A DNA stretch of 64,000 nucleotides from Nostoc sp. DedSLP01 (GTDB lineage: Bacteria; Cyanobacteriota; Cyanobacteriia; Cyanobacteriales; Nostocaceae), in the NCBI GenBank assembly GCA_034530875.2, contig JAVRCJ020000001.1:192001-256000 (forward strand), given 5' to 3'. Each line of letters begins with the position of its first letter. Position 1 is the stretch's first letter. Below, piece after piece: positions 1,191-63,798 of this stretch. A program made the position numbers and the translations under genes. Under the pieces are notes generated by a model. The model did no database searches. It saw only the letters and a list, made by a program, of their open reading frames with translations, and was not told where the DNA came from.

Positions 1191-1217
1191 ATCGCTAGCC
1201 AAAACTATATAATTACT

Positions 1218-3599: not shown

Positions 3600-3608
3600 T
3601 TAAAGCTT

Positions 3609-41073: not shown

Positions 41074-41180
41074 TAAGGCAGCACCGATCGACTTTAGGTA
41101 TATCGCCAATGCAATCCTTTCTACAGATGAAGTTGTTGCAGCAATAAAGTAATGTCAAACTCATTAATTTTACAACACTT

Positions 41181-41546
41181 ATGAAAACATCCGCGTTACT
41201 CCTGGCTTTGCCAATCAGTATCTTAGCTAATTTTTCCTTAAGAGCTTCTGCTGACTCTACAGCTGGCCTCATCCTAAGTACGAAATGCCAGGGTGGCTAC
41301 AACATCAATATTTGGCAGAATTATAATTCCGGTGAACTACTCTATCGCGCAACCAATCCCAACGGTAATTTAAGTTTGGGCAAAGGAACTAGCCAAGCGA
41401 CAGAAGGTGTTCGAGTGTATAAGTTTCGCAATAGAAATTATGAATATTGGGTGTGGGATGGTACGTTGGATAACCCGCAGTCTGGAACTTTAGAGGTGTA
41501 TAAAAACAACCGGATCTTGATGAAGCAAGCTTGTACGAAAAGTTGA
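41181..41546 (+). CDS. Small secreted hypothetical protein
   Basis: Signal peptide (MKTSALLLAL..ASA) and two Cys. Confidence 0.7.
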   Translation: MKTSALLLALPISILANFSLRASADSTAGLILSTKCQGGYNINIWQNYNSGELLYRATNPNGNLSLGKGTSQATEGVRVYKFRNRNYEYWVWDGTLDNPQSGTLEVYKNNRILMKQACTKS

Positions 41547-41559
41547 ATCCTAAGCGCGG

Positions 41560-42510: not shown

Positions 42511-42524
42511 TTTTCTGATTTTTT

Positions 42525-42555
42525 AGCCCCTGACCCTTCAGGGGATTTTTGTTTG
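42525..42555 (+). terminator. Possible rho-independent terminator or REP hairpin
   Basis: CCCCTGA-CCCT-TCAGGGG followed by a T tract. Confidence 0.5.
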
Positions 42556-42613
42556 TTAGCTAATTACTTAACTTATGAAGAGATAATCGCGATCGCAAAC
42601 ACAATAACTCAAC

Positions 42614-42977
42614 TTACTCAATCAACCTCAAATGCCGATGGAAAACCTCAACCGCATTTGCCACCCCATCCTCACCTCGAATCTTCTCACCCAACTCCTG
42701 GGCTTTAAACTGCATCCCCTTATCACCCAGTACAACTTCAATCGCTGCCGCTAGAGTTTTTTCTGAAACTTCCTTGTAAGGCATGGGTTTGGGGCTGACT
42801 CCTAGCCGCATTAGCACGACTACCCAAAAACAGCAAGGGCGGCAATTTTAATGTTTCGGTTCTCAAGGAGTTGAGCAGCTTTCGATACCTCTGCCAGTAA
42901 AGTAACTCTGCAATGAAGTAGCTTGCATAATTGATAACTTTCTTGAGCGGATTTGTTGTTGTTCGAGCGAATCTCAA
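42614..42977 (-). pseudogene. GT1/GT28 (sterol glucosyltransferase-like) fragments joined by an internal deletion
   Basis: NSLRTETLKLPPL segment fused out of frame to FW..LMRLGVSP...IRGEDGVANAV. Confidence 0.6.
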
Positions 42978-43089
42978 AAATCATCCGATCTCAACAGAAA
43001 ATCTTTGTGCATAAGCCCTGATGGTGAAAGTTACCAATACTTGGGAACCATAAGCTTGACAACCCTTGTTGAGCTTATGGAGACAACAA

Positions 43090-45501: not shown

Positions 45502-45565
45502 TTTGTTGATATTCCATATTAAACAGCGATTTTTATCTTTTCTATAAAAAACTATATTTCGACCG

Positions 45566-46822
45566 ATGAAAAACTTTGATTTTGTTTTAATTGTTGATGA
45601 TAATCCCACTAATTTGTCAGTACTATCACAAGCGCTAAAAAGTGCCGGGTTTGCAGTTCGAGTTGCCGAAGATGGAGAAACTGCAATTGACATGGTACAG
45701 CATAAACAACCTGCTCTAATTTTATTAGATGTGCAAATGTCTGGAATAGATGGGTTTGAGACTTGCCAGAAACTCAAAGCTGACCCATTAACGCAAAACA
45801 TCCCCATTATTTTTATGACTGCGTTAGCGGATACTGAAAATAAGGTGAAAGGATTTTCGTTAGGAGCCGTTGATTACATTCCCAAACCTTTTGAACAAGC
45901 AGAAGTCATTGCCAGAGTGCGAATGCATTTACAACTCAAGCAATTGACCGACAATCTTGAACAAAGAGTGACAGATAGAACAGCAGCTTTAGAACAGGCA
46001 CAAGTGCAGCTGGTACAACAAGAAAAGCTGTCTATGCTTGGTCAATTGGTAGCAGGTGTAGCACATGAAATGAATAATCCTATTAGCTGCATTACTAGCA
46101 ATATTCATCCGGCACAAGAATATATTGCCGACCTCACCGAAATCTTGCAATTATGTCAGCAAAATTATTCCCAATTACCGCCTGTAATTCAAGATGCGAT
46201 CGCACAAACAGATCTAGAGTTTATCTTAGAAGATTTACCAAACCTCCTCAACTCGATGCAGGTTAGCACACAACGAATTAAAGATATATCCGTATCGCTG
46301 CGAAACTTTGCCCGTACTGACACTTTCGGAAAAGTTAAGTTTGATGTCCATGAAGGACTTAACGATACATTATTAATTTTGCGACATCGCCTGAAAGGAG
46401 TTGGACAGCGACCGGAAATTCAAATCATCAAAAAATACGCTTCCTTACCAAAAGTTGAGTGCTATCCGGGGCAACTTAATCAAGTGTTCATGAATATTTT
46501 AGCTAATGCCGTTGATGCTTTAGAAGACATTTGGCAGGAAGGAAAGCGAGTCAATGATTCCCTGGCAATCAACATCTGCACCGAGGTGTCCAGTCCTAAT
46601 TATGTCACGATTCGGATTTGTGATAATGGCATTGGCATGACAGAGGAAGTAAGACAACAGATTTTTAATTATCTATTCACCACGAAAACAGTTGGTAAAG
46701 GTACTGGACTGGGATTAGCGATCGCTAATCAAATTGTAGTAGAAAAGCACGGAGGAGCAATTCAAGTTAATTCCACACTCAATCAAGGAACTGAATTTGT
46801 CATCATGTTACCTTTGCAATAA
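45566..46822 (+). CDS. REC-histidine kinase hybrid
   Basis: IVDDNP..LLDVQM..DYIPKP, AHEMNNP, GKGTGLGL. Confidence 0.92.
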   Translation: MKNFDFVLIVDDNPTNLSVLSQALKSAGFAVRVAEDGETAIDMVQHKQPALILLDVQMSGIDGFETCQKLKADPLTQNIPIIFMTALADTENKVKGFSLGAVDYIPKPFEQAEVIARVRMHLQLKQLTDNLEQRVTDRTAALEQAQVQLVQQEKLSMLGQLVAGVAHEMNNPISCITSNIHPAQEYIADLTEILQLCQQNYSQLPPVIQDAIAQTDLEFILEDLPNLLNSMQVSTQRIKDISVSLRNFARTDTFGKVKFDVHEGLNDTLLILRHRLKGVGQRPEIQIIKKYASLPKVECYPGQLNQVFMNILANAVDALEDIWQEGKRVNDSLAINICTEVSSPNYVTIRICDNGIGMTEEVRQQIFNYLFTTKTVGKGTGLGLAIANQIVVEKHGGAIQVNSTLNQGTEFVIMLPLQ

Positions 46823-46871
46823 CAACATGAGTTGGAACATAACGCTCCTCCAGCAGATTCAAGAAATAAAC

Positions 46872-46995
46872 CTAATTCAAGGGCAATATAAGTGTAAATT
46901 CTGCTCTCGATCCTAGTTCTGATATTACACTTAGTTTTCCTTTATGTTTCTCAATAATGGAATAGCTAATTGATAACCCCAAGCCCGTGCCTTTT
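46872..46995 (-). pseudogene. C-terminal remnant of a histidine kinase HATPase
   Basis: Minus-strand translation KGTGLGLSISYSIIEKHKGKLSVISELGSRAEFTLILPLN*. Confidence 0.75.
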
Positions 46996-47778
46996 GAATT
47001 GATTTGACGCTACAGCTTGTACCAATGTCATTCTATCGAGTCCCTGCTGATAGCGCTGGTGAGGCTTGTTTGTATTTCATCCTGTCTGAACTGAAGTTAG
47101 GTAAGCAAGCTACTGGGTATAAAACTGCTCAGAAGATTCTCAATCGGTTCAGTTGACCTGTTTGGTGAATTCGCCAACGGTATCCGTTTCTCGGCTCAAT
47201 ACCGTTCAGTACTGTAATACTTAGGTAAATTACTTATTAAATAGAACACAACAAAACTGACATAAAGCATTTGTAGCGGGGTTAATAAAAATTAATTTAG
47301 ATAAAGTGTAATAAATAGAGATGGAACACAGATTATTTGTATAGCATTAGATAACTTTGTTGTTTTTAATGCTAACTGAACTTATCTGAACATTAGATTT
47401 TCTCTATGTTCAGCACTTATTACTCAAGATTTTTTTTTAAATTGGAAATTAAATTCTTACGGTAATTACATAGAGGCTGGTTGATCTAGATTTACAAAAC
47501 AATAGTATATTAGCCGATTACAATCAAGTTTTATAACCAGTAAAATATAACAAATTAATCTATTACATGAATTTTGTAAGAGTATTTTAGTAAATGTAAT
47601 TTTAAAAAACCTCATATTTATGTAAATAAAAAATCAACTGTTATACTCGAAATTAAAATACAACAACTTATTAATTTTTATATCTATAATATTTAAAAGT
47701 ACATTATCATATATTAACAATATAAATATTCAACCAGTTCAAAAATATTCTTTAAAAAAATAACTCAAATAGAAAACA

Positions 47779-50700
47779 ATGGTTACAAGCTTTAAATATA
47801 ATAATCTAAAAAAAATTTCTGACAGTCTAGAAACTGTTGTTTATAGAGCATACGATACTGCAAATCAGAAAAATGTTATTTTAAAAAGTCTTAAAAGTGA
47901 ATATTCTAATCTTGAATATGTTACAGTATTTAAACATGAGTACCAAATTTCTAGCTCTATAGATTTGCCTGGTATTATCAAAGTATACAGATTAGAAAAT
48001 TTTCAAAATTGTATTACTCTAGTTTTAGAGGATATTGAAGGGCAAAATCTAAAACAATATATAGATGATGTTAAACTTAATGTCATAGATTGCTTAAAAA
48101 TAGCCATTCAACTTGCTGATATTATTGCCAGCTTACACGAAAAACATATTATTCATAAAGATATTAAACCACAAAATATAATTATTAATCCTAAACTAAT
48201 GCAAGCTAAAATAACTGATTTTAGCATTGCATCACGTTTATCAAAAGAAAATGCAATTATCAGTAATCCGAATTTGCTCAAAGGCACACTTGCTTATATG
48301 TCTCCAGAGCAAACAGGGCGGATGAATAGGTCGATTGACTATCGTACAGACTTTTACTCTTTAGGCGTAACTTTCTATGAGCTGTTCACCTCAAAGTTAC
48401 CATTTTATTGCACCGATCCCTTAGAAATAATTCACGCTCATATTGCAAAACAACCTCTACCCCCTCATCAAGTTAACCCACAAATTCCAGAGGCATTATC
48501 TAATATAATAATCAAATTATTATCTAAAACTGCTGAAGAAAGATACCAAAGTGGCTTAGGGCTAAAAGCAGATTTAGAAACTTGTCTTAAACAGTTAATA
48601 ACTAATGGCAAAATTGACAATTTTATTCCTGGCCAATTAGATAAATTTAGTCAGTTTACTATTCCTCAAAAACTGTATGGGCGCGAACAAGAAGTAGCAT
48701 GTCTTATATCAGCTTTTGACCGAGTAAGTGCAGGAACAACCGAGATGATGTTAGTCTCTGGTTATGCAGGGATTGGTAAATCTTGCTTGGTTAATGAAAT
48801 TCATAAACCCATTATCCGACAACGCGGGTATTTTATATCTGGTAAATTCGATCAATTTAAGCGTAACGTTCCTTATGCAGGTTTAATTCAAGCATTTCAG
48901 GAATTAACCCAACAATTATTAACAGAAAATTATGAAAAAATACTTATTTGGAAACAAAAACTTTTAAAAGCATTTGGCGACATTGGTCAAGTTATTATTG
49001 ATGTTATTCCCGAAATTGAAAAAATAGTTGGTCAACAGCCATCTGTTCCACAGCTAGGAGCAACTGAATCACAAAATCGCTTTAATACGGTATTTCAAAA
49101 ATTTATTCAGGTGTTTACTCAGAAAGAACACCCACTCGTTTTATTTTTAGATGATTTACAATGGGCAGATTTAGCATCGCTAAAGTTGATTAAGATGCTG
49201 ATGGTTGAACCTGGTAGCCAATATTTATTAATGATTGGAGCTTATCGAGATAACGAAGTTATCTCGACTCATTATTTGTTTCAAACTTTAAATGAAATTC
49301 AGCAATCAGGAACAGTTATAAACAATATCCTCTTACAACCTTTAAATCTTGTAAATGTTCATGAATTAATAGTTGATACCTTCCATATCACTACAGAAAA
49401 AACAAAAGCCTTAGCTAATTTAATTTTTAGCAAAACTCAAGGTAATCCTTTTTTCATCAACCAACTACTCCAAACAATGTATCAGGAAAAGCTATTAAAT
49501 TTTGATTTTAATAGTGGAGTATGGCAGTGGGAAATCAATCAAATTCAGACGGTTGGTATTACAGATTATGATGCCATAGAATTAATTGCGAGAAATATTA
49601 AAAAATTACCTAAAGAAACGCAAGAAGTTTTAAAATTATCTGCTTGTATAGGAAATCGCTTTAGTATAGATATTCTAGCAATTGTCAATGAAAAATCTCA
49701 GTCAGAAACCGCATCTGATTTATGGGAAGCACTGCAAGCAGGTTTAATTTTGCCACTAAGTGAGAACTATAAAGCTCCGTTGTTTTTTGACGAAGGCACA
49801 TCTAGCTCTATAGCTTCCCAGGAATTAAAAATTTCATATAAGTTTTTACACGATCGCGTCCAGCAAGCAGCTTATTCCCTCATCCCAGAATCCCAAAGAA
49901 AACAAACTCACCTAAAAATTGGGCAACTATTATTAGATTCTTACCAAACAGGAGAGATTGAAGAAAATATTTTTGATATTGTCAATCATCTAAATTTTGG
50001 TACTGAGTTTATTTGCGAACAGTCCAAAAGAGATAGACTAGCAAAATTAAATTTAATCGCTAGCCAAAAAGCAAAAGCAGCATCAGCATACGAAGCTGCT
50101 TTGAGTTATGCAACAGTTGGACTAGAATTGCTTAACTCATCAAGTTGGGAAAGTAACTACGACCTGATGCTGGCACTGCATCTAGAAAGCGTAGAATTAC
50201 AATACCTAAATGCTAACTTTAAACGCGCAGCCATCCTAACTGAAACAGTTTTAGAAAAAGCCACTAATCTGCTGGATCTAGTCAAAGCTTACCAATTACA
50301 GATCCAGTTTTATATGGCTCAAAATCAGATGCTTCAAGCCATTGATGCTGGACTAGAAGCGATCGCCAAGCTAGGAGTATCTCTATCAGAAACACCAAAC
50401 AAACAAAGTACTATAGCTAATTTACCTCAACTCCAAGATTTAGAAAATTATCCAATTGTTACAGATCCTTGCATCCTAGCGGCTTTAAAAATCCTTGTTA
50501 CCATTGCTGGTGCTGCTTTTATTACTAACCCAACAAAAACAAATTTTCCTCAGATAATCTTGACTGTTGTCAATCTCTGCATTAAACACGGTCATTCACC
50601 TTTAGCTGCCCACGGGTACGCTTATTATGGTATGCTTTTGTGTGGCTATCTAGAAAATATTGATGCTGGATATCACTCTGGTCAAATAGCTTGGCAGATA

Positions 50701-53256
50701 TTAGAGCAATTCCAAACTATTGAACTTAAAAGCAAAGTATATGCCCCATTTTATGGTTTTACTATTCATTGGAAAGAGCATATTAGAGAAACAATTGCTC
50801 CACTCCAAGAAGGAATTCAAACCGCATTAGAAATCGGAGATTTAGAGTACGCTGGCTATTGCTCTGTCCACTACTGCGGCCATATATTTTTTAGTGGAGA
50901 ACAACTCGAATTAGTAGCTCAACAGCAGGCATCATATATTGATTTGCTACAAAAATTTCAACTAGATTTCCCTATCAACTACATTAAAATTTGGCATCAA
51001 CTAACATTAAATTTACAAGATTTGTCACAAAATAAATATATTTTAGTTGGCGATAGTTTTGATGAAGTATCAATGGTTGCATATTTACAAGAAACGAAGA
51101 ATGCTACTTCTTTGTTTGTTGTTTATGTTGCCAAAATGATTCTGCTTTACTTATTTAAGGATTACGCTCAAGCAGTTGATAATGCCAAATTAGCTTCAGA
51201 ATATATAAATGGTGTTCTGGGAATGATGTCAGTTGGCATCCACAACTTATATTATTCTTTAGCCTTGATTGGTTTATATGCCAACGTTGAACCCGACATT
51301 CAACAAGAATATCTAGATATTATCAATGCCAATCAGGAAAAAATGCAGCTATGGGCTAGTCATGCTCCTGCTAACTATCAGCATAAATACTATCTAGTAG
51401 AAGCAGAAAAAGCCCGAATCTTAGGACATACTTTTGTCGCAATGGAGTATTATGAGCTAGCGATCCAAGGAGCAAAAGAACAAAGATTTCTTCAAGAAGA
51501 AGCACTAGCCAATGAATTGGCAGCAGAATTTTACTTTTCTCGCAATAGAGATAAACAAGCGATTTTCTACCTCAAAGAATCTTATCATGGTTATGTACGT
51601 TGGGGAGCTATTACAAAAGTCAATGAATTAGAATCAAAATACCCTGACTATTGTCCATTAAGAATAAATCATGAATCATCTAGTTTGAAGTCACCTCTAC
51701 CCACTACTTCAAGCAAAATAAGCAATTTAGCATCTTTTGATTTAAATACAGTCTTTAAAGCCTCGCAAGCTATTTCTAGCGAAATTATACTAGATGATTT
51801 GCTAGCAAAATTGATGACAATTGTGATGGAAAATGCTGGCGCACAAAGTAGCTGCTTACTTTTAGAAAAAAATGGGCAAATGGTGATAGAAGCTGTAATG
51901 GGCGTTAATCACAATAAGCTATTGCTAGAAACATCAATACCTTTAGATAATACTCGATATTTGCCAGTATCAATTGTTAATTATGTTGTTACGACTAAAG
52001 AAAGTGTTGTTCTTGGTAATGCTAGTTGTGAAGGCATATTTGTTAGCGATCCTTATATTATTAACCAGAAATGTAAGTCTATTTTATGTACGCCGATTAT
52101 TCATCAAAGTAAACTCATAGGTATTATGTATTTGCAAAATAACTTAACAGCAAATGCATTTACTACGGAACGTTTAGAGGTTTTAAAAATTCTTGCCTCT
52201 CAAGCAGCTATTTCCATTGAGAATGCAAAGCTTTATACTAATTTATCTAAATTAAATGATAATCTGCAACAAGCTAACCAGGAATTAGAGAATTATAGCA
52301 AAAATCTGGAGCTAAAAGTCGAAGAAAGAACACAGGAATTAAATGAAAAAAATGTGTGTTTAAAAGAACAAGCACAACAGTTAGAACTCACACTAAGGGA
52401 ACTACAAGCTACGCAGTTACAGATGGTTCAAAAGGAAAAAATGTCTAGTTTAGGTCAACTAGTTGCTGGTATAGCTCATGAAATTAATAACCCAATTAAC
52501 TTTATTTATGGAAATATTACTCATGCAAGTGAATACACTGAAGATATATTACGCATAATCAAAATTTACGAGCAACATTCACCTAATTTAACTCCTCAAA
52601 TGCTGGCAGAACAAGAGGATATCGATCTTGAATTTTTGCTTGAAGATTTACCCAAATTGCTATCTTCTATGAAAGTCGGGGCTAATCGCATCCGCCAGAT
52701 AGTTCTAAGTTTACGCAACTTCTCCCGTTTGGATGAAGCAGAAATAAAGTCAGTGAATATTCATGAGGGTATTGATAACACTTTACTAATCTTGCAACAT
52801 CGGCTCAAAACTGATTCAGTAAATTCTAAAATTCAGATTATTAAAAATTATGGCACTTTACCATTAGTAGACTGTTATCCCAGTCAACTCAATCAAGTAT
52901 TTATGAATTTGTTAGCTAATGCTATTGATGCTATAGAAGAGTCTAACTCTGCCCGTTCATCAAAAGAAGCTGAAATAAATCCAGGTTATATCAAAATTAC
53001 TACTGAGTTATTAGAGCAAAATTGGATTTCGATCTGCATTGCTGATAATGGACTTGGCATGAATTCAGATATACTTGCTCAGATTTTTAATCCTTTCTTT
53101 AGTACCAAACCTGTTGGTAAAGGTACTGGTTTAGGATTATCTATTAGTTACAATATTATCGTGGAAAAACATGCAGGTAAAATCAGTTGTTCGTCAATAC
53201 CAGGAGAAGGAAGCGAGTTCTTAATTGAACTTCCCGTACATCAGAAGAACTTCTAA
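47779..53256 (+). CDS. Trifunctional Ser/Thr kinase - AAA ATPase - GAF - histidine kinase (HstK/Pkn-type)
   Basis: HKDIKPQN, TDFS, YMSPEQTG; Walker A GYAGIGKS, Walker B FLDDLQW; GAF; AHEINNP; GKGTGLGL. Confidence 0.95.
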   Translation: MVTSFKYNNLKKISDSLETVVYRAYDTANQKNVILKSLKSEYSNLEYVTVFKHEYQISSSIDLPGIIKVYRLENFQNCITLVLEDIEGQNLKQYIDDVKLNVIDCLKIAIQLADIIASLHEKHIIHKDIKPQNIIINPKLMQAKITDFSIASRLSKENAIISNPNLLKGTLAYMSPEQTGRMNRSIDYRTDFYSLGVTFYELFTSKLPFYCTDPLEIIHAHIAKQPLPPHQVNPQIPEALSNIIIKLLSKTAEERYQSGLGLKADLETCLKQLITNGKIDNFIPGQLDKFSQFTIPQKLYGREQEVACLISAFDRVSAGTTEMMLVSGYAGIGKSCLVNEIHKPIIRQRGYFISGKFDQFKRNVPYAGLIQAFQELTQQLLTENYEKILIWKQKLLKAFGDIGQVIIDVIPEIEKIVGQQPSVPQLGATESQNRFNTVFQKFIQVFTQKEHPLVLFLDDLQWADLASLKLIKMLMVEPGSQYLLMIGAYRDNEVISTHYLFQTLNEIQQSGTVINNILLQPLNLVNVHELIVDTFHITTEKTKALANLIFSKTQGNPFFINQLLQTMYQEKLLNFDFNSGVWQWEINQIQTVGITDYDAIELIARNIKKLPKETQEVLKLSACIGNRFSIDILAIVNEKSQSETASDLWEALQAGLILPLSENYKAPLFFDEGTSSSIASQELKISYKFLHDRVQQAAYSLIPESQRKQTHLKIGQLLLDSYQTGEIEENIFDIVNHLNFGTEFICEQSKRDRLAKLNLIASQKAKAASAYEAALSYATVGLELLNSSSWESNYDLMLALHLESVELQYLNANFKRAAILTETVLEKATNLLDLVKAYQLQIQFYMAQNQMLQAIDAGLEAIAKLGVSLSETPNKQSTIANLPQLQDLENYPIVTDPCILAALKILVTIAGAAFITNPTKTNFPQIILTVVNLCIKHGHSPLAAHGYAYYGMLLCGYLENIDAGYHSGQIAWQILEQFQTIELKSKVYAPFYGFTIHWKEHIRETIAPLQEGIQTALEIGDLEYAGYCSVHYCGHIFFSGEQLELVAQQQASYIDLLQKFQLDFPINYIKIWHQLTLNLQDLSQNKYILVGDSFDEVSMVAYLQETKNATSLFVVYVAKMILLYLFKDYAQAVDNAKLASEYINGVLGMMSVGIHNLYYSLALIGLYANVEPDIQQEYLDIINANQEKMQLWASHAPANYQHKYYLVEAEKARILGHTFVAMEYYELAIQGAKEQRFLQEEALANELAAEFYFSRNRDKQAIFYLKESYHGYVRWGAITKVNELESKYPDYCPLRINHESSSLKSPLPTTSSKISNLASFDLNTVFKASQAISSEIILDDLLAKLMTIVMENAGAQSSCLLLEKNGQMVIEAVMGVNHNKLLLETSIPLDNTRYLPVSIVNYVVTTKESVVLGNASCEGIFVSDPYIINQKCKSILCTPIIHQSKLIGIMYLQNNLTANAFTTERLEVLKILASQAAISIENAKLYTNLSKLNDNLQQANQELENYSKNLELKVEERTQELNEKNVCLKEQAQQLELTLRELQATQLQMVQKEKMSSLGQLVAGIAHEINNPINFIYGNITHASEYTEDILRIIKIYEQHSPNLTPQMLAEQEDIDLEFLLEDLPKLLSSMKVGANRIRQIVLSLRNFSRLDEAEIKSVNIHEGIDNTLLILQHRLKTDSVNSKIQIIKNYGTLPLVDCYPSQLNQVFMNLLANAIDAIEESNSARSSKEAEINPGYIKITTELLEQNWISICIADNGLGMNSDILAQIFNPFFSTKPVGKGTGLGLSISYNIIVEKHAGKISCSSIPGEGSEFLIELPVHQKNF

Positions 53257-53293: not shown

Positions 53294-56200
53294 ATGATTA
53301 ATAATTTTGCAGGTACAGATGTTGCTAGTATCTCAATTTCTGAAGTTTTTATGGCTTTGGTAACAGGAAATATACTAGATGAACCGTATGAACCATCAAG
53401 GATTGGAAAAATTTCCTGGCTCACAACGACACAAAGAGATTTATATCTGGATAATATGCTTCATCCAGATAATACTGTTTTCAGTTTAGGATTATCGATA
53501 AAGCTGCCACAAAATTTAGATACATATACTTGGGAACAGGCGATAAGAATAGTATGTCAAGAAGATGACACAATTAAGACTAAGTTTATTTTTTATCAAG
53601 GTGAAGCTTTTCAATTTGTAGATAACAATGCTGATATTCATTTTGAATTTATAGAAATAGGTACTAGAAATGCTGATTTTAATAGTTTAGAACAGGTTGT
53701 AAAAGAAAAAATTAAAGTCAAGCTAGAACTTGACAAAAACTATTTATTTAAAAATGTTTTAGTCAAAGATGGACAGGGTGGTTATACTGCTATTTTAGGT
53801 GCGCCTCATATTCTTTTTGATGGATATTCTGGCAAGGTTTTCTTTGAAAGAGTTGCAAAAGTCTATTTAGATTTAAAAGCAGGCAATATTACTCGAAAAT
53901 TTAAATATAGTTCTTTTTATGATTCTATTCAGGAGCATTTGCTTGAATTTGATACTCAAGAAATTCAGCAGTACTGGCAGGAATCTTTAAGTAAGGTTAT
54001 TCCTGTCACGTCTTATATAAAATCCAAAGAAGAAAACAAAGCTCAATCTAGAAAAGTACAAATTACAGGGAATGACCTAGAACATATTAGAAAATATTGC
54101 CAAATAAATAAATGTAATATTCCAGCTTTTTTTAGGGCTGTGTATGGTATTTACTTGAGCAAGTATTTACAAGCGTCAGGAGATTTTGTCTTTTATGATA
54201 TTATCGGTAAAAGAAATAAGCAAACACTTAATGTTTTAGGTTGTCTATATCAAGTAGTTCCGATTATTATTCCTCAAGATAGCCTAGAAAAAAATAACAA
54301 TATTGGTAATTACCTTTCATATATAACTGATTATCGCAAAAATTTAAATCATTATCAAAACATTTCTGTTTTTTTACAGAAAAAATTTATAAAAGATGAA
54401 CAATTAAAATTTTTCTATAATTTCTATAAGTTCAGCGTGCTTAATCTGCCTGTTGCCGAAGAAAATACCAGATTAACTGTTTATAATTCTTTTGCAGATA
54501 ATGAAGTTCATCTTATAATTAATGAGTTTAAAGATAGTCTAGAAATAGAATTTTTTTATAACGAAGCTTATTTCGTATATATAAAAACTTTAGAAAGATT
54601 GCTATTTATAGCTAATCAAATTATTCAAGGTTGTGAATATTTTGAGCAATTGAAGATATTACCAGAAAACGAACATCAAGAACTATTAGAAAGCTGGAAT
54701 GATACCAGTAAGAATTATGCATTAGATAAATGCGTTCATCAGCTCTTTGAAGCGCAGGTAGAGCGATCGCCAAACACCGTAGCTGTAGTATTTAAAGAGG
54801 CAGAAAATAACCGCGAACAATCTTCACTCACTTACCAACAGCTAAATCAGCGAGCGAATCAGTTAGCACATTATCTGCATTCGCTAGGCGTGAAGCCAGA
54901 TATGCCTGTGGGAATCTGTGTCGAGAGAAGTCTAGAAACGGCGATCGCAGTTTTGGCGGTTCTCAAAGCTGGTGGTGCTTACGTACCATTAGATCCAGCG
55001 TATCCTAAGGATCGTTTAGCTTTCACGATCGAGGATACGCAAATATCTGTATTGCTCACTCAGCAGCAATTACTACCAGAGCTTCCCAAACATCAGGCAC
55101 AAGTTATTTGTTTAGATACCGACTGGGATAAGATAGGCCAATACAGTCAGGAAAATCCCTCTACAGAAGTCACAGCAGAGAATTTAGCCTATATCATCTA
55201 CACCTCTGGTTCAACAGGCAGACCAAAAGGCATCTGTTTAGGCCATCGTCCTTTAGTGAATTTACTCGAATGGCATCTAAATTCACTATTAACAGGTGTC
55301 CGTACCTTGCAATTTGCCTCCTTAAGCTTTGATGCCAGCTTTCATGAAATGTTTGCTGCTTGGTGTTCGGGAGGAACTTTATTTCTCATCTCAGAAAACT
55401 TGCGTCGGGACACCACAGCTTTAGCTTACTTCATTCACAACCAAGAAATTGAAAAAGCGATTTTGCCTGTTGTCATCCTACAGCAAATGGCAGAACTAGC
55501 CACATCTGGGTTGAAATTATTTACCAGCCTCAAAGAAGTTACCACCACAGGCGAACAACTGCAAATCACTCCTGCCATTGTCAAATTATTCAAATCCCTG
55601 CCACACTGCTCATTTCACAATCACTACGGCCCATCAGAAACCCATGTAGTAACGGCTTTAACATTAGATCCAAATCCTGATTCCTGGCCTGCTTATCCCT
55701 CCATAGGTCGTCCAATAGCTAACACTCAAATCTACATACTTGATACCGAGTTAAAACCAGTTCCTATCGGTGTTCCGGGAGAACTATATATTGGTGGCGT
55801 TAGTTTAGCTAGGGGTTATCTCAATCGGCCAGATTTAACTAACGAACGCTTTATTGCCAATCCCTTCCAAAGAGGCAGAGGGGCAGAGGAGCAGAGGAGG
55901 CAGTGCGGTCTTGGGGGTTTCCCCCATGAGCAACTGCCGTCGAGCAGAGGGGATGGAGAAAGCTGCGATCGCTTGTATAAAACAGGCGACTTAGTTTGTT
56001 ACTTACCAGATGGGAACATTGAATATCTCGGTCGGATAGACCAACAGGTGAAGATTCGCGGCTTCCGCATTGAGTTAGGGGAAATCGAGACAATACTCTT
56101 GCAACATCCTGACGTGCGCAAAGCCGCAGTCATAGCGCGTGAGGATGTAGCTGGAGAAAAGCGCCTAGTTGGTTATATTGTTTCTAACCTAATTCCAGAA

Positions 56201-59200
56201 CGAGTACCTTATCAAAGTCTTTGTCGAGTCGAGACTGATGATAATCGGATAGTGGAAGTACAAACAGAAGATATCTCCAATGGTGGCGTGTGCTTAGTAG
56301 AAGTGCCATTTAGTTGGGCAAAAGGTAAACGAGTCCGTCTTTGTCTGAGGTTGCCAGTAATATCAGAAGAACTTTGGATAGACGGTTGTATTGCTTGGTG
56401 TCAGGGTAAGCGGGCTGGTGTTGAGTTGACTCTAACACCTAGTGAAAAAGTCCTCTTTAACCAAAGCATAGAGTATATCTTAGAAACTCAACATTTATGG
56501 AAAACCTTGCAGCGGACAATAAGTGGCAATCTTCGGAGATTTCTCCAACAGAAGTTACCAGACTATATGCTGCCTTCCAGTTTTGTGATGTTAAATGTAT
56601 TGCCGCTAACACCGAATGGCAAAGTAGATCGTCGTTCCCTACCAGTACCCGATCGCAACCGATGGAATCAAGAGCAAGATTTTGTTTCACCCCGTACTGC
56701 CGTTGAGGAAGTACTAACAAAAATTTGGCTGAAAGTTTTGAAGTTACAGCAGATTAGCATCCACGATAACTTTTTTGAGGTTGGGGGACACTCACTGTTA
56801 GCGACACAGGTAATTTCTCGGATTCGAGATACCTATCAGTTGGATATACCATTACGGCGTTTATTCGATGCACCTACTGTTGCTAGCTTGGCTGAAAGTA
56901 TCGAGGTGCAACTCAACCAAAATCAAGAATGGCATACTTGGGCGATCGCACCTGCAGGGCGCAACCAAAACTTGCCCCTTTCCTTTGCCCAGCAGCGATT
57001 GTGGTTCCTCGAACAGTTGTTGCCTGACAGTCCCTTTTACAATTTCCCCCAAACTTTTCACCTGTTTGGTCAGGTAAATGTGAAAGCTTTAGAGCAAAGC
57101 CTCAACGAAATTGTGCGACGGCACGAAGTTTTACGCACCACTTTTGCTTCATTAGATGGGCAGCCCGTACAAATTATTATTCCGGCTCTAAGTGTACTTA
57201 TACATCTGGTAGATTTGCGTTCTTTATCTGAATCAGAAAAAGATACAGAAATTCAACGATTACGGATTGAAGAGTTCCAACAACCTTTTAATATCAACCG
57301 CGGCCCATTATTGCGAGCAGCCCTAATACAGATAGATGCAGAAGAATCTTTACTGCTTTTGAGCATTCACCACATTGTTTTTGATGGTTGGTCTGTGAGC
57401 GTATTGTTTCAAGAACTGACATTGCTGTATCAAGCTTTTGCTAATGGTTTACCTTCTCCTTTGTCTGAATTGCCCATTCAGTATGCAGACTTTGCTGTTT
57501 GGCAGAGACAATGGTTGCAAGGAAAAGTCATATCAGAGCAACTGAGTTATTGGAAGCAACAGCTAGCAGATTTACCCATTTTACAGTTGCCAAGCAATCG
57601 CCCCCGTCCAGCCATCCAAACTTATCGCGGAGCGCGTCAACCTCTAGCATTCTCCAAATCTCTTAGCGAGGCAGTAACTCGGTTCAGCCAACAAGAGGGA
57701 TGTACCTTGTTTATGACCCTCTTAGCAGCATTTCAAACGCTGTTATACCGCTATACGAGTAGTGAAGACATCATAGTAGGCTCGTTAATTGCCAATCGCC
57801 ATCATCAGGAAATCGAGAGTTTAATCGGATTCTTTGTTAACACTTTAGTACTACGCAGTGATTTTTCTGATTCTCCAACGTTCCGCCAGCTGCTCAAGCA
57901 AGTACGAGAAGTTACTTTAGAAGCTTACGCTCATCAAGACGTACCCTTTGAAAAACTGGTGGAGGAACTAGAACCAGAGCGTGATTTGAGCCGCCATCCT
58001 TTATTCCAAATCTGCTTTGCACTGCAAAATGTACCCATACAAGCTTTGGAACTTTCCGGTTTAACAATCAACCATCGCTTAGAACACAATGGTACAGCCA
58101 AGTTCGATTTATTCCTAGAATTATTTGAAACGCCAGATGGAATTAGTGGTTGGTTTGAGTACAGCACTGACTTATTTGATGCTGCTAGTGTCTCTCGGTT
58201 AGGAGAAAATTTCCAGACTTTAGTTGCGGGGATTGTCGCTAATCCAGACCAGAGAGTGGCAGATTTACCGCTTTTAACATCTGGTGAACGCCAACAATTA
58301 TTAGTGGAATGGAATCAAACTCAAGCACACTACCCGCAACAAACTTGCATTCATCAACTATTTGAAGCCCAAGTTAAGCGCGTACCTGACTCCATAGCAG
58401 CGATATTTGCAGACCAACAAATAACCTACCGTGAATTGAATGCTAGAGCCAATCAGTTAGCCCGTCATTTACAAGCTTTAGGTGTAGGGCCAGATGTATT
58501 AGTAGGGATTTGTCTAGAACGTTCTTTAGACGCGATGATAGCTTTACTAGGGATTCTCAAAGCTGGTGGGGCTTATATACCTCTAGATCCAGCCTATCCC
58601 CAGCAGCGTTTATCTTTGATGGTGTCAGATTCGCAGCTATCAGTACTCCTAACCCAGCAGCATTTGTTGGCACAACTTCCTCAACATCAAGCGCATATTG
58701 TCTGTTTGGATAAAGACTGGCAGGATATTGCTACACAAAACCAAGACAACCTAGATACTAATGTTAATCCTGACAACTTAGCTTATGTAATCTACACCTC
58801 CGGTTCCACAGGCAAACCGAAAGGCGTACAAATTATGCACGACTCTGTAGTTAATTTCCTGCACTTCATGGGTCAACATTTGGAACTGACAGAGCAAGAC
58901 ACACTGCTTTCCGTTACTACCTTATCGTTTGATATTGCCGTACTCGAAATTTTCTTACCCATTACTCTCGGTGCGCGTGTTGTCACGGTCAGTCGCGAAG
59001 AGGCTATGGATGGCAAAGCGTTAATTGCAAAATTAACCAATGGCATTACCGTTATGCAAGCTACTCCAGCCACTTGGCAACTGCTTCTAGAGGCAGGTTG
59101 GCAAGGTAGTAAAGATTTGAAAATCTTCTGTGGTGGGGAAGCTTTGCCGAGAAAATTAGCTAAACAATTGCAACAGCGATGCGCTACTTTATGGAACGTT

Positions 59201-62200
59201 TATGGCCCGACTGAAACAACCATTTGGTCAGCAACATATAAAGTTGCATCTGAAGACGGACAAGTTCTAATTGGTCGCCCTATGGCCAATACTCAGTTCT
59301 ACATACTTGACTCTCAGTTACAACCTGTACCTGTAGGTGTGCCAGGAGAACTTTACATTGGTGGTGCTGGTTTAGCACGCGGTTATCTCAATCGCCCCGA
59401 TTTGACGGAAGCTCGGTTTATTCCTAATCCGTTTAATAACTCAAAAGCAAGCGATCGCCTTTATAAAACTGGAGATTTAGTTCGTTATCTTCCTGATGGC
59501 AATGTCGAGTATCTTAGCCGTATCGACCACCAAGTGAAGATTCGTGGCTTCCGAATTGAGCTAGGCGAGATTGAAGCCGTTTTGACGCAACATCCCTCAG
59601 TCCAGAAAGGTGTAGTCATAGATCGGGAAGATATACCCGGACAAAAGCGTTTAGTAGCATATTTAGTGCAGAATCAACAAGATGAGAATGTCCCATTATT
59701 AGCAAATTGGCAAACCGAACACCTTTCCCAGTGGCAAACAATCTACGATCAAACCTACAAGCAAACTACTGAGGAACAGAACCGCGTATTTAATACTATT
59801 GGCTGGAACAGTAGTTATACAGGTATGCCTATTCCTGCCGAAGAAATGCGCGAGTGGGTAGATTGCACTGTTGAACGCATTCTTTCTCTGCAACCCAGCC
59901 AAGTACTAGAAATTGGTTGCGGTACAGGTTTGTTGTTATGCAAAATTATTTCCCATTGCAGTAAGTATTGGGGGACTGATTTCGCACCGGAAGCATTGCG
60001 ACAAATCCAACAGTTGCAAATGTCCGGTCAAGATTGGCCGCAACTGACTTTGTTGCAAAGACCTGCGGACAATTTTGAGGGTATTGAGACAGATGCCTTC
60101 AATACAGTAATTATCAATTCAGTAGTTCAGTATTTTCCTAGCATTGACTATCTGCTGCAAGTTTTGACAGGAGCAGTCAATGCTGTGCAGCCTGGTGGTT
60201 TTATATTTATCGGAGATGTACGCAGTCTACCTTTACTAGAGGCTTACCACACTTCTGTAGCCCTGTATCAAGCATCATCTACACTTTCCACGATACAGTT
60301 ACAAGAGCGCATTCGCCAACGCCTCAACCAAGAGGAAGAACTGGTAATTGACCCAGACTTTTTTAGAGCATTAGGACAGCACTTGCCTAAGATAGGCCGC
60401 GTTCAAATTCAAGTCAAACGAGGTCAGCATCATAACGAACTGACAAAGTTTCGCTACGATGCGATTTTACATATAGGAACTGATACTGATAGCACTGTCG
60501 GAATTACTTGGTTGGATTGGCAACAACAACAGCTAACTTTGTCATCTGTTCGTCACCTGTTATTAGCAACTGAGCCAGAGATTTTAGGAATCAAAAATGT
60601 ACCCAATGCCAGAGTAATTCAGGAAATCAAGACTATAGAATTGCTCAACAGTCCAGAAGGGCTGAACACAGTAGGCGAAGTGCGATCGCATTTAGAACAA
60701 CTTCCCCAGATTGGCATCGATCCGGAAGAATTGTGGAATTTAAGCCAAGATTTACCCTATTTGCTCGATATTACTTGGTCAGAATCGAGTGTGGTTGACT
60801 GTTACGACGTAGTTTTCAGACATAACCAAAAAGAAGGGGTGACAAATGTGATCGCTAATCGAGATACAGTTGCTCTTAAACCTTGGAATTACTATGCCAA
60901 TCAACCTCTACAGGGCAAATTTACCCGCAAACTGGCAGTAGAACTCCGCCGCTTTCTGGAACAAAAGCTACCAGAATATATGATACCTACAGCTTTTGTC
61001 AGCTTAGAGAAATTGCCATTAACACCTAATGGTAAGTTAGATCGGCGATCGCTACCTGCACCAGATCAGTCCAGAAGCAGTCTGGAAGCAGCATTAGTTA
61101 CACCTCGTACTCCTACTGAGTCAAAAATGGTTGCTATTTGGGCTAAAGTATTGGGTAGCGATCGTGTGGGAATTCAAGATAACTTCTTTGAACTAGGTGG
61201 TAATTCCCTATTAGCAACCCAGTTAATGATGTATCTACGAGAAACTTTTCAAGTAGAACTGCCTGTAAGATATATTTTTGAGCAGCAAACTATAGAAGGA
61301 CTCAGCCAAATCATTGACAAACTGCATCAAAAAGGCACTGCTGTTCTGGATACTGTTGTTAATCTAAAAGCTGAAGCAGTACTAGATCCAAACATTTATC
61401 CTCAAGGAATCCTTGCCCAGGATATCACCCAGCCAAATCATATTTTCTTAACAGGAGCAACAGGCTTTTTAGGTGCTTTCTTAATCCATGAATTACTAGA
61501 GCAAACTCAGGCAAAAATATATTGTCTCGTGCGTGCTAAGAACGAAACTGAAGGGTTGAAAAGGCTACAAAAAACCCTAGAAAAATATTTAATTTGGGAT
61601 GCAAGCCAAAGTTCTAGAATCATCCCCATACCAGGAGATTTAGCTTTACCTCGTTTTGGAGTTTCTGTAGAGCAATTTGAGAAGTTAGTACAGCAAATTG
61701 ATGTTATTTATCATAGCGGCGCTCAAGTCAACTTTGCTAAACCATATTCTGTAATTAAGGCAGCAAATGTTCTTGGTACACAAGAAGTTCTCAGATTAGC
61801 GTGTCAGCATCAACTCAAGCCAGTACACTACATCTCAACAATGGCTGTTTTTGGCGCAATGGCCAGTATAAATGGGTTGAATGTCCTTTATGAGGATGAC
61901 GGCATTGATCAGAGTGAACCTTATCTTTCTCAAGAGATTGGCTATACACAAAGTAAATGGGTAGCTGAAAAACTTGTTTGGATTGCTAAATCTAGAGGAA
62001 TCCCTGTAACAGTTATTAGATCGGGATTTTTAATGGGTCATCCTCAGACTGGTGTCACTAATACAGATGACTTCATATCTAGATTGATTGTAGGTTGTAT
62101 ACAAGTAGGTAGTTTTCCAGAACTAATCAATCAAAAACAAGATTTAATTACTGTAGATTATGCCAGTAAAGCCATTGTTCAAATATCTCAGAAAAAAGAA

Positions 62201-62569
62201 TCTTTAGGAAAGGCGTTTCATATAGTGCCTTTAGCATCGGAAAACATTGATTTAATTAAATTATTTGAGTTGATATCAGCTTGTGGATACCAACTTCAGA
62301 AAGTACCATATTCCCAATGGACAGATAATTTAATTAATCAAGCTCAGTATTCCCAGTCAAATCCCTTATTCGCTCTTTTACCTATGTTCACTGAAAAAGT
62401 GAATCCAGAACAGGCTGCATGGGAGCTATATCAAAACACTGCTAATTTAGACTGTCGCAATACCATAAATGCAATTGCCAATACATCAATTAAATGTCCA
62501 TCAATGGATGCGGAATTAATCGGTAAATATTTAGATTATTTTCAACGCAGCGGATTTTTGAGTATGTAA
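53294..62569 (+). CDS. Two-module NRPS: C(starter)-A(PilZ-like insert)-T-C-A(N-MT insert)-T-R (terminal reductase)
   Basis: PHILFDG and HHIVFDG; two YTSGSTG.PKG; GGHSL and GGNSL; VLEIGCGTG; TGATGFLG and YTQSK; DISNGG PilZ-like motif at 56270. Confidence 0.93.
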   Translation: MINNFAGTDVASISISEVFMALVTGNILDEPYEPSRIGKISWLTTTQRDLYLDNMLHPDNTVFSLGLSIKLPQNLDTYTWEQAIRIVCQEDDTIKTKFIFYQGEAFQFVDNNADIHFEFIEIGTRNADFNSLEQVVKEKIKVKLELDKNYLFKNVLVKDGQGGYTAILGAPHILFDGYSGKVFFERVAKVYLDLKAGNITRKFKYSSFYDSIQEHLLEFDTQEIQQYWQESLSKVIPVTSYIKSKEENKAQSRKVQITGNDLEHIRKYCQINKCNIPAFFRAVYGIYLSKYLQASGDFVFYDIIGKRNKQTLNVLGCLYQVVPIIIPQDSLEKNNNIGNYLSYITDYRKNLNHYQNISVFLQKKFIKDEQLKFFYNFYKFSVLNLPVAEENTRLTVYNSFADNEVHLIINEFKDSLEIEFFYNEAYFVYIKTLERLLFIANQIIQGCEYFEQLKILPENEHQELLESWNDTSKNYALDKCVHQLFEAQVERSPNTVAVVFKEAENNREQSSLTYQQLNQRANQLAHYLHSLGVKPDMPVGICVERSLETAIAVLAVLKAGGAYVPLDPAYPKDRLAFTIEDTQISVLLTQQQLLPELPKHQAQVICLDTDWDKIGQYSQENPSTEVTAENLAYIIYTSGSTGRPKGICLGHRPLVNLLEWHLNSLLTGVRTLQFASLSFDASFHEMFAAWCSGGTLFLISENLRRDTTALAYFIHNQEIEKAILPVVILQQMAELATSGLKLFTSLKEVTTTGEQLQITPAIVKLFKSLPHCSFHNHYGPSETHVVTALTLDPNPDSWPAYPSIGRPIANTQIYILDTELKPVPIGVPGELYIGGVSLARGYLNRPDLTNERFIANPFQRGRGAEEQRRQCGLGGFPHEQLPSSRGDGESCDRLYKTGDLVCYLPDGNIEYLGRIDQQVKIRGFRIELGEIETILLQHPDVRKAAVIAREDVAGEKRLVGYIVSNLIPERVPYQSLCRVETDDNRIVEVQTEDISNGGVCLVEVPFSWAKGKRVRLCLRLPVISEELWIDGCIAWCQGKRAGVELTLTPSEKVLFNQSIEYILETQHLWKTLQRTISGNLRRFLQQKLPDYMLPSSFVMLNVLPLTPNGKVDRRSLPVPDRNRWNQEQDFVSPRTAVEEVLTKIWLKVLKLQQISIHDNFFEVGGHSLLATQVISRIRDTYQLDIPLRRLFDAPTVASLAESIEVQLNQNQEWHTWAIAPAGRNQNLPLSFAQQRLWFLEQLLPDSPFYNFPQTFHLFGQVNVKALEQSLNEIVRRHEVLRTTFASLDGQPVQIIIPALSVLIHLVDLRSLSESEKDTEIQRLRIEEFQQPFNINRGPLLRAALIQIDAEESLLLLSIHHIVFDGWSVSVLFQELTLLYQAFANGLPSPLSELPIQYADFAVWQRQWLQGKVISEQLSYWKQQLADLPILQLPSNRPRPAIQTYRGARQPLAFSKSLSEAVTRFSQQEGCTLFMTLLAAFQTLLYRYTSSEDIIVGSLIANRHHQEIESLIGFFVNTLVLRSDFSDSPTFRQLLKQVREVTLEAYAHQDVPFEKLVEELEPERDLSRHPLFQICFALQNVPIQALELSGLTINHRLEHNGTAKFDLFLELFETPDGISGWFEYSTDLFDAASVSRLGENFQTLVAGIVANPDQRVADLPLLTSGERQQLLVEWNQTQAHYPQQTCIHQLFEAQVKRVPDSIAAIFADQQITYRELNARANQLARHLQALGVGPDVLVGICLERSLDAMIALLGILKAGGAYIPLDPAYPQQRLSLMVSDSQLSVLLTQQHLLAQLPQHQAHIVCLDKDWQDIATQNQDNLDTNVNPDNLAYVIYTSGSTGKPKGVQIMHDSVVNFLHFMGQHLELTEQDTLLSVTTLSFDIAVLEIFLPITLGARVVTVSREEAMDGKALIAKLTNGITVMQATPATWQLLLEAGWQGSKDLKIFCGGEALPRKLAKQLQQRCATLWNVYGPTETTIWSATYKVASEDGQVLIGRPMANTQFYILDSQLQPVPVGVPGELYIGGAGLARGYLNRPDLTEARFIPNPFNNSKASDRLYKTGDLVRYLPDGNVEYLSRIDHQVKIRGFRIELGEIEAVLTQHPSVQKGVVIDREDIPGQKRLVAYLVQNQQDENVPLLANWQTEHLSQWQTIYDQTYKQTTEEQNRVFNTIGWNSSYTGMPIPAEEMREWVDCTVERILSLQPSQVLEIGCGTGLLLCKIISHCSKYWGTDFAPEALRQIQQLQMSGQDWPQLTLLQRPADNFEGIETDAFNTVIINSVVQYFPSIDYLLQVLTGAVNAVQPGGFIFIGDVRSLPLLEAYHTSVALYQASSTLSTIQLQERIRQRLNQEEELVIDPDFFRALGQHLPKIGRVQIQVKRGQHHNELTKFRYDAILHIGTDTDSTVGITWLDWQQQQLTLSSVRHLLLATEPEILGIKNVPNARVIQEIKTIELLNSPEGLNTVGEVRSHLEQLPQIGIDPEELWNLSQDLPYLLDITWSESSVVDCYDVVFRHNQKEGVTNVIANRDTVALKPWNYYANQPLQGKFTRKLAVELRRFLEQKLPEYMIPTAFVSLEKLPLTPNGKLDRRSLPAPDQSRSSLEAALVTPRTPTESKMVAIWAKVLGSDRVGIQDNFFELGGNSLLATQLMMYLRETFQVELPVRYIFEQQTIEGLSQIIDKLHQKGTAVLDTVVNLKAEAVLDPNIYPQGILAQDITQPNHIFLTGATGFLGAFLIHELLEQTQAKIYCLVRAKNETEGLKRLQKTLEKYLIWDASQSSRIIPIPGDLALPRFGVSVEQFEKLVQQIDVIYHSGAQVNFAKPYSVIKAANVLGTQEVLRLACQHQLKPVHYISTMAVFGAMASINGLNVLYEDDGIDQSEPYLSQEIGYTQSKWVAEKLVWIAKSRGIPVTVIRSGFLMGHPQTGVTNTDDFISRLIVGCIQVGSFPELINQKQDLITVDYASKAIVQISQKKESLGKAFHIVPLASENIDLIKLFELISACGYQLQKVPYSQWTDNLINQAQYSQSNPLFALLPMFTEKVNPEQAAWELYQNTANLDCRNTINAIANTSIKCPSMDAELIGKYLDYFQRSGFLSM
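55868..55965. repeat. STRR plus palindromic SDR inserted in frame in NRPS A1
   Basis: GCAGAGG(A/G) repeats flanking the GGCAGT...GGGGGTTTCCCCC...ACTGCC hairpin. Confidence 0.75.
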
Positions 62570-62952: not shown

Positions 62953-63798
62953 ATGCGGGCTTTTAATATGCACCTCACAGAAGAACAGTTATTAATTTAC
63001 AAAAATCAAGGATTTCTCGTATTACCAGAATATTTTTCTCGCGGTGAAATTGAAGCGATGAAAGCAGAATTATCTAGTTTATCAGCAGATAACTCACCCA
63101 AAAAAGTTCTGGAAAAAGATGGTAAAACTGTACGTTCACTGCATGGTTCGCATACAACAAATGATGTTTTTAATCGCCTAACACGACATCCGTTTATTGT
63201 TGAACCTGCAATGCAAATAGTTGGGAGTCAAGTTTATATATATCAATTTAAAATTAATCTTAAAGCTGCATTTAGTGGCGATATTTGGAAGTGGCATCAA
63301 GACTACATCTATTGGCGTAAAGAAGATGGAATGCCAAGACCGCAAGTAGTCAATGCCATGTGTTTATTAGATGATATGAACGAATTTAATGGGCCGCTAT
63401 TTTTGATTCCTGGTTCTCATAAAGAAGAGATGATTGATGTTACGGCTCATAGTTCTAATGAAAGTCAGGGATGGATATCGAGTTTTAGTGCTAATTTGAA
63501 GTATTCTCTCAACCAGAAATTAATTACTGATTTAGTATCAAAATATGGAATTACTTTTATCAAAGCTGCGGCAGGTTCATTAGTGTTTTTTGATAGTAAT
63601 ATTGTCCACGCTTCTAGCAATAATATATCACCTTTTGGACGTTCAACAGTAATTATTACTTATAATAGTATTGAAAATATTCCTTCTCCAACTATAAACC
63701 CACGACCACATTTTCTTGTTAGTCAAGATTATCGACCTGTTATTCCTTTAGCATCTGATATGTTATCTCAGCTTTCTAGCCAGGGCAACTGTATATAA
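62953..63798 (+). CDS. PhyH-family Fe(II)/2OG dioxygenase, L-proline 4-hydroxylase-like
   Basis: YQFKINLKAAFSGDIWKWHQDYIYWRKEDGM with HxD, plus H..S..N...R, resembling actinomycete proline trans-4-hydroxylase. Confidence 0.8.
   Translation: MRAFNMHLTEEQLLIYKNQGFLVLPEYFSRGEIEAMKAELSSLSADNSPKKVLEKDGKTVRSLHGSHTTNDVFNRLTRHPFIVEPAMQIVGSQVYIYQFKINLKAAFSGDIWKWHQDYIYWRKEDGMPRPQVVNAMCLLDDMNEFNGPLFLIPGSHKEEMIDVTAHSSNESQGWISSFSANLKYSLNQKLITDLVSKYGITFIKAAAGSLVFFDSNIVHASSNNISPFGRSTVIITYNSIENIPSPTINPRPHFLVSQDYRPVIPLASDMLSQLSSQGNCI

Follow-up and report, generated by a model that had tools for sequence, protein, structure and literature searches.

The adenylation (A) domains of nonribosomal peptide synthetases (NRPSs) can be interrupted by a second domain, and an interrupted A domain is defined by a catalytic insert, which may be a methyltransferase (M), a ketoreductase (KR), or an oxidase (Ox/MOx) (PMC8341866). 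Canonical PilZ receptors of cyclic di-GMP (c-di-GMP) carry the motifs RxxxR and [D/N]hSxxG; the described non-binding PilZ groups are without both (10.1101/814665; 10.1101/2020.02.11.943704). The targets of c-di-GMP in cyanobacteria are poorly known (PMC10124867). Here, the first A domain (A1) of a two-module NRPS from Nostoc sp. DedSLP01 is shown to carry a PilZ domain within its small subdomain, in the loop that tolerates a methyltransferase in other A domains. The window, which is the whole stretch of DNA that was analyzed, comprises 64,000 nt (JAVRCJ020000001.1, positions 192,001-256,000; assembly GCA_034530875.2), and all coordinates are positions in this window.

An earlier note on this DNA held that no characterized PilZ-interrupted A domain was known, and no description of an NRPS-nested PilZ domain was found in the literature searched, subscription papers and the supplements of two preprints excepted. 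The available portions of 10.1101/814665, 10.1101/2020.02.11.943704, PMC7063779, PMC10124867, PMC10519070, and PMC10510592 contain no such protein, and PilZ is not mentioned in the available text of the interrupted A domain survey (PMC8341866) and one of its supplements. Pfam architecture lists would already contain the PilZ-NRPS combination, as the database matches show. What is new from this locus is an orthologue series together with selection data for the insert.

Position and Fold of the Insert

The whole insert (56177..56530, + strand) corresponds to aa 962-1079 of the NRPS and comprises 118 aa, arranged as a short linker, a PilZ barrel, a PilZ helix, and a return helix. The sequence KRLVGY begins at aa 956 (nt 56159) and is followed by NLIPER at aa 965 (nt 56186), TEDISNGG at aa 991, and AGVEL at aa 1041, and the flanking A-domain motif LRRFLQQKLPDYM resumes at aa 1080 (nt 56531). 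The small subdomain of A1 is split into an N-terminal half (56045..56176, +; aa 918-961), from motif A8 to the strand that precedes the insert, and a C-terminal half (56531..56653, +), which contains motifs A9 and A10 with the catalytic Lys1110 intact. The A1 core (54731..56044, +; aa ~480-917) has intact motifs A3 (aa 637) and A7 (aa 895), and A8, A9, and A10 are likewise present.

The distance from A8 to A10 is 189 aa in A1 and 498 aa in A2, compared with ~84-91 aa in plain A domains. The N-side junction lies 38 aa past A8 in both modules, and the flanks of A1 and A2 can be aligned on both sides. The PilZ insert and the module-2 methyltransferase therefore occupy the same a8-a9 slot.

The PilZ core (56198..56446, +; aa 969-1051) was identified using Pfam and fold comparison. 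The insert has a single Pfam match, to PF07238, which scores 42.5 bits against a cut-off of 22.5 (E 8.9e-11 when the whole protein is searched). The AlphaFold2 model of aa 915-1120, built from a 56-row alignment, has a predicted local distance difference test score (pLDDT) of 89.9. In the model, the barrel is followed by a helix (aa 1049-1065) and then by another (aa 1068-1085), which merges into the native helix of the subdomain. The return helix (56495..56530, +; aa 1068-1079), which includes Gln1073-Arg1074, continues into the A-subdomain helix. The pLDDT of the whole A1-T1 model, which includes the adjacent carrier domain, is 87.8.

The barrel matches solved PilZ structures with Z scores of 12.2-13.6. 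Values of 13.6, 13.4, 13.1, 12.8, and 12.7 were obtained for MotI (5VX6; root-mean-square deviation (rmsd) 1.9, 96 residues aligned), the cellulose synthase PilZ domain 4I86, MrkH (5EJL), Alg44 (4RT0), and YcgR (5Y6F), respectively, and Foldseek concurs. The split A1 subdomain matches that of TioS (5WMM) with a Z score of 16.2 (rmsd 1.9, 101 residues aligned). Given the profile score, the model quality, and the fold matches, the PilZ assignment is not a chance result. An assembly artifact was ruled out; the reading frame is open and the whole insert is present in 24 database proteins. Sequence searches of the PDB returned no solved NRPS-PilZ structure, and a protein atlas search returned only stand-alone PilZ clusters.

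The earlier note had placed a series of motifs between the A1 flanks, and each of these is located as described in the open reading frame (ORF) 53294-62569. It had also called the insert PilZ-like, assigned it to the slot of the module-2 methyltransferase, and contrasted it as non-catalytic with the usual a8-a9 interruptions. The profile score, the junction distance with the flank alignment, and the lack of any further Pfam match bear out these three claims, and the fold that it had proposed to check was recovered by AlphaFold2, Foldseek, and comparison with the solved PilZ structures.

Ligand Motif Residues

The RxxxR motif of the insert is reduced to one half (56189..56203, +), with Leu966 at the place of the first Arg and Arg970 kept (Leu966-x-x-x-Arg970); the single Arg had been recognized in the earlier note. 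The [D/N]hSxxG motif, D993-I-S995-N-G-G998 (56270..56287, +), is intact. Among the 85 single inserts of the family described below, R970 is conserved in 93%, D/N993 in 88%, S995 in 84%, G998 in 93%, and L966 in 65%, and most other polar positions are conserved in 20-60%.

The residues that remain of the motifs are those that contact guanine and ribose in canonical sites (PMC7288161). Alg44 cannot do without its second Arg (R21) and residue 44, and its first Arg (R17) and R95 are required solely for the dimeric ligand (PMC8461298). An optional c-di-GMP site, probably binding the monomer and tuning module 1, is tentatively put forward with slightly less than even confidence. Without a full RxxxR motif, the insert is a weaker candidate for a canonical receptor, but it may still function like one. 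It is very improbable that the altered site binds a different nucleotide (for example c-di-AMP, cGAMP, pGpG, or cGMP) instead. Polar residues specific to the subfamily are found beside the motif in single inserts, such as T991 (92% of singles vs 51-58% of tandem copies), but the guanine and ribose contacts that are kept are the canonical ones.

Two further arginines were considered. Arg1040 in the last barrel strand (56411..56413, +) is a candidate extra ligand contact and serves as a lead only: it is present in 21 of 21 full-insert orthologues but in 44% of the 85 singles, and its proximity to R95 of Alg44 is estimated from arithmetic on alignment ranges. Arg1074 of the return helix is found with an intact motif in 47/58 vs 7/18 singles, kinship being uncorrected. 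An Arg at this place of the return helix appears in 54 of 66 single-PilZ tails, in 14 of 17 N-methyltransferase tails (10 of which are orthologues of the A2 domain in the window), and in 3 of 193 plain A domains. The idea of a split arginine pair, with Arg1074 replacing the first Arg, was demoted for the reason that the same Arg occurs in the return helices of N-methyltransferase inserts. The shared return helix register hints that the single-PilZ cassette may have acquired its return helix from a methyltransferase insert.

The prediction of a complex of two copies of the PilZ-bearing subdomain with c-di-GMP gave scores of 0.08 and 0.10 (mark 0.42); the ligands are not scored by the tool, and these values count neither for nor against binding.

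Distribution of PilZ Inserts in NRPSs

In a database search, 24 of 84 matches span the whole query region. Among 50%-cluster representatives, 131 proteins match at an E value of 1e-10; the 150 best matches were retrieved, and a profile made from the first matches recovered 146 of 229 stored proteins. The family set consists of the representatives and the window, and matches of fewer than 55 profile columns were dropped. This set contains 123 insert slots in 119 proteins, 85 of them single and 38 tandem, and an A9-like motif follows 106 slots. The survey of homologues that the earlier note had called for thus reveals a wide family and not a one-off insert.

Of the 38 tandem slots, 28 have both ligand motifs complete, as do 15 of the 20 tandem slots that have A9 and the A10 lysine. 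Among 95 readable PilZ-bearing A cores, 55 different pocket codes are found, which argues against a substrate-specific chemical role; this role was rejected. Where a protein has more than one A core, first and later modules alike carry the insert. The insert belongs to a portable, substrate-independent cassette, single or tandem, of filamentous cyanobacteria and some other bacteria.

It is present in 21 of 401 genomes of the phylum of the window. The 47 named loci are from Nostoc, Dendronalium, Microcoleus, Oscillatoria, Leptolyngbya, Limnoraphis, Laspinema, Lyngbya, Crinalium, Kamptonema, Pantanalinema, and Ca. Parabeggiatoa. Within the class to which the Parabeggiatoa genome belongs, 400 genomes were scored and five carry the insert, with one more unscored, and one Acidobacteriota protein contains it. 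The cassette occurs up to five times per genome (G228). The tree of 161 barrels (98 columns) does not separate an origin of the singles from first tandem copies from an origin from later copies.

Three variant arrangements were observed in the family. The entire PilZ-bearing small subdomain is duplicated in tandem inside one module in P0001, P0085, and P0086 and in L005-L007. The A10 lysine is lost from the tandem-PilZ A domains of P0136, P0142, P0143, P0149, P0154, P0158, P0171, P0176, and P0191, in most of which the first copy has a complete RxxxR motif. L022 (G089:C1:85826-89164) and L117 are small stand-alone ORFs of 332 and 341 aa with family inserts and no A core.

Orthologues and Selection

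Among 389 Nostocaceae genomes searched, 27 clear A1 orthologues (84-100% identical) were obtained. The whole insert is present in 21 of these and the half-site is kept in 20. In the remaining six the NRPS gene is open and the barrel is absent. A 78-aa in-frame deletion removes the barrel from L095. In L087, L091, L101, L104, and L105 the A8-to-A10 spacing is 87 and the junctions resemble the insert flanks, and these five clusters retain the kinase, NRPS, and dioxygenase genes. A third type of barrel-removing junction is found in the database protein P0026, so that there are at least three different in-frame junctions overall. The starred branches of the A-core tree force five changes for the six reduced rows. 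In both trees L087 and L095 fall within the insert-bearing rows, as does L091 in the core tree alone; in the basal L101, L104, and L105 the barrel may have been lost or never gained.

One lineage of the 21, L102, has changed R970, D993, and S995 together. At the 59 positions that are otherwise invariant, L102 has 8 changes of its own, and 3 of them fall on these ligand residues (p 0.0017, post hoc). R970Q, which takes a single base change from CGA, is found in L102, L095, and P0026, always with further decay. The ratio of nonsynonymous to synonymous substitution rates (dN/dS) for the insert is 0.225 (bootstrap 0.16-0.36), calculated pairwise from 10 orthologues of the Nostoc group. Thus, where it is present the insert evolves under purifying selection, but it can be dispensed with. 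The earlier note had suggested that the insert could gate peptide synthesis allosterically. With the barrel absent from 6 of 27 orthologues, and all three genes kept in the five clusters that were fetched, an obligatory gate is unlikely, and an optional device or one for tuning is the better fit. The cluster provides a natural series with the same pocket that includes intact, motif-lost, barrel-deleted, and insert-free orthologues.

The losses of the barrel also suit a folded passenger, in which the single barrel would be a reduced, non-sensing descendant of the ligand-binding tandem cassette, folded only because misfolding would harm A1 and lost upon clean in-frame deletion. This explanation is doubtful but deserves serious consideration. 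It would account for the absence of the first Arg from nearly all singles, for the multiple in-frame junctions and the five forced changes, for the intact gene content of barrel-less clusters, and for an insert dN/dS that exceeds that of the A core. It does not sit well with ligand-face residues that are 84-93% kept across singles of less than 50% identity, with a cassette that has spread to A domains of 55 pocket codes and up to five copies per genome, or with an insert that is whole in 21 of the 27 orthologues.

Proposed Role of the Insert

For the optional c-di-GMP site proposed above, the following mechanism can be envisaged. The face formed by Arg970, Asp993, Ser995, and Gly998 would still bind c-di-GMP, probably as the monomer and with lower affinity than a canonical site has. 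Only ~9 residues separate Arg970 from the strand by which the barrel is anchored to the subdomain, and ligand binding would consequently fix the barrel angle. The A small subdomain rotates by ~140 degrees between the two half-reactions (PMC10510592), and a fixed barrel could bias this rotation, and with it the choice between the adenylation and thiolation states, or could alter the contact with T1. The output of the first module would then be tuned by the cellular level of c-di-GMP. The device would be optional, since some lineages drop the barrel and keep the cluster. In favor of the proposed site are the fold and the conserved ligand-face residues, the complete motifs of most tandem slots, the low dN/dS of the insert in the Nostoc group, the joint change of three ligand residues in L102, the 55 pocket codes, and a genome with 24 GGDEF matches.

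Several observations weigh against the proposed site. The first Arg of RxxxR is absent, and in FilZ the mutation of this residue (R9A) abolished binding (PMC10304486). Both motifs are complete in only 4 of the 85 single slots, and folding could instead be the reason for the conservation of the Arg-Asp-Ser-Gly set. Arg1074 is more likely to be structural since its return helix register is common to N-methyltransferase inserts. No GGDEF or EAL family is detected among the 68 of 286 neighboring ORFs that were scanned. Six of 27 orthologues dispense with the barrel, and the dN/dS of the insert is above that of the A core (0.141; 0.191 for A9-T1) and reaches 0.38 and 0.34 in two other groups.

A stronger form of the proposal is direct switching of the first module by c-di-GMP. 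PilZ-interrupted A domains would then be a class of second-messenger-gated NRPS modules, the tandem inserts binding with high affinity and the single inserts sensing the monomer, and loss of Arg970 or of the barrel would uncouple synthesis from the signal. This stronger form is considered rather unlikely. If true, a second messenger would act on the NRPS protein itself, beyond transcription. Gating, if real, could account for clusters that stay silent in heterologous hosts, and it could provide a small portable switch for engineered synthetases.

Genome Context and Neighboring Genes

A gene for a Ser/Thr kinase-AAA-GAF-histidine kinase (47779..53256, +), assigned from its ORF and Pfam matches, ends 37 bp upstream of the NRPS gene. 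A PhyH-family dioxygenase (62953..63798, +; Pfam and NCBIfam) is a conserved downstream member of the cluster. The genome contains 32 kinases of this type and 24 GGDEF matches, and the NRPS insert is its only PF07238 match. A donor PilZ domain was sought in the same genome and none was found (one PF07238 match among four candidates).

A kinase of this type is found within 10 kb at 24 of the 47 named loci, compared with 3 of the 16 other NRPS clusters of the genome. This association would be expected if the barrel were a ligand-independent adaptor that docks a partner (the neighboring kinase, another PilZ, or another module), as does the Xanthomonas PilZ protein with FimX and PilB. Non-binding PilZ adaptors have been described (10.1101/814665; 10.1101/2020.02.11.943704; PMC7288161), and type IV pilus PilZ adaptors are among the best PDB sequence matches of the insert (E ~0.002). 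The 47 loci are not independent, however, and in five other genomes the kinase lies within ~10 kb at 2 of 6 PilZ clusters (author's reading). It is kept in all five barrel-less clusters that were fetched, and G228, which has five inserts, provides no kinase match at E 1e-40. The known adaptors lose both motifs but DxSxxG is kept here. An adaptor is accordingly improbable, the protein-docking role raised in the earlier note gained no support, and the kinase as an obligatory partner was rejected. The link to the kinase is a property of the clusters, not of the barrel, because barrel-less orthologues keep the kinase and G228 lacks a match.

Three other NRPS loci of the genome (G000 C11, C49, and C71) likewise have such a kinase no more than 10 kb away. 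The pairing of kinase and NRPS may be a wider cyanobacterial theme. The upstream region 38661-53256 is rich in signaling genes and contains a second, truncated AAA-type kinase remnant beside a transposase, followed by a MASE1 hybrid kinase, a receiver-kinase, and the large kinase. The end of a contractile injection system locus (a peptidase S74 tail protein and a tape measure protein) is found at 18-5474.

Other Domains of the NRPS

The NRPS gene (53294..62569, +) encodes 3091 aa with the organization C1-A1(PilZ)-T1-C2-A2(N-MT)-T2-R, where C, T, N-MT, and R are the condensation, carrier, N-methyltransferase, and reductase domains. It was annotated from the ORF, Pfam, and NCBIfam (TIGR01733 and TIGR01746). 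The T1 carrier domain (56711..56896, +; Pfam) follows A1. In A2, the a8-a9 slot holds the methyltransferase (59663..60943, +; aa ~2124-2550), which was located from Pfam and motif spacing; the terminal thioester reductase domain (61439..62560, +) was assigned from Pfam and NCBIfam.

The pocket residues of A1 and A2 are DAHITTHVV and DILQFGVIW, respectively. By the specificity code tables, the former would be proline-like and the latter glycine-like. The product would combine the proline-like A1 residue with an N-methylated, glycine-like A2 residue and would be released reductively. The orthologues P0008-P0012, P0015, P0016, and P0028 (~2560-2670 aa) have no module-2 methyltransferase. In the two that were read, P0008 and P0028, a proline-like module-2 pocket replaces the glycine-like one, so that the second residue would be N-substituted either way.

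The C1 domain (53294-54700) is AT-rich, with a GC fraction of 0.286 vs 0.43-0.46 in the following domains, and has a degenerate catalytic motif (HILFDG) and a dN/dS of 0.34. Its composition is like that of the upstream kinase gene, which suggests that the NRPS gene is a mosaic. An in-frame insertion of ~30 aa (55866-55960) appears in the A1 loop ahead of A7 and consists of small dispersed repeats (26 blastn matches in the genome). Its length varies between orthologues, and it is disordered in the A1-T1 model.

Comparison with Known Systems

The closest systems in layout are the a8-a9 interrupted A domains (TioS A8-M-A9, 5WMM; families 1, 2, and 5), in which the insertion point is the same, after the L(V/A/I)(A/G)(Y/F) strand (PMC8341866). 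The split subdomain fold is shared with TioS (Z 16.2), and the return helix is in the register of N-methyltransferase tails. The difference is in the insert itself, a 118-aa non-catalytic PilZ domain here and a methyltransferase of 260-390 aa there. The slot and the host core motifs of an interrupted A domain are thus present and a catalytic insert is not. In layout, A1 resembles an a8-a9 interrupted A domain, but it falls outside the catalytic-insert definition of that group.

With the canonical PilZ receptors (Alg44, YcgR, MotI, MrkH, and 4I86), the insert has in common the barrel and C-terminal helix (rmsd 1.8-3.2 over 95-102 residues), the second Arg, and [D/N]hSxxG. Unlike these receptors, it has Leu for the first Arg, is nested in an enzyme subdomain, and is tethered at both ends. 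The non-binding adaptors PA2960 and XAC1133/XC1028 share the incomplete RxxxR and match weakly in sequence. In PA2960-type adaptors both motifs are lost and the barrel is incomplete, whereas the NRPS insert keeps DxSxxG and the second Arg and matches full barrels, so the loss of both motifs is not seen here.

In BcsA, as in this NRPS, a PilZ domain and a biosynthetic enzyme are parts of one polypeptide, and BcsA is a model of allosteric control (PMC8461298). The PilZ domain of BcsA is terminal, has full motifs, and moves a gating loop; that of the NRPS is internal and would be an optional half-site. In the A-domain interruptions described, the inserts are tailoring enzymes; here, a candidate sensor occupies the same slot.

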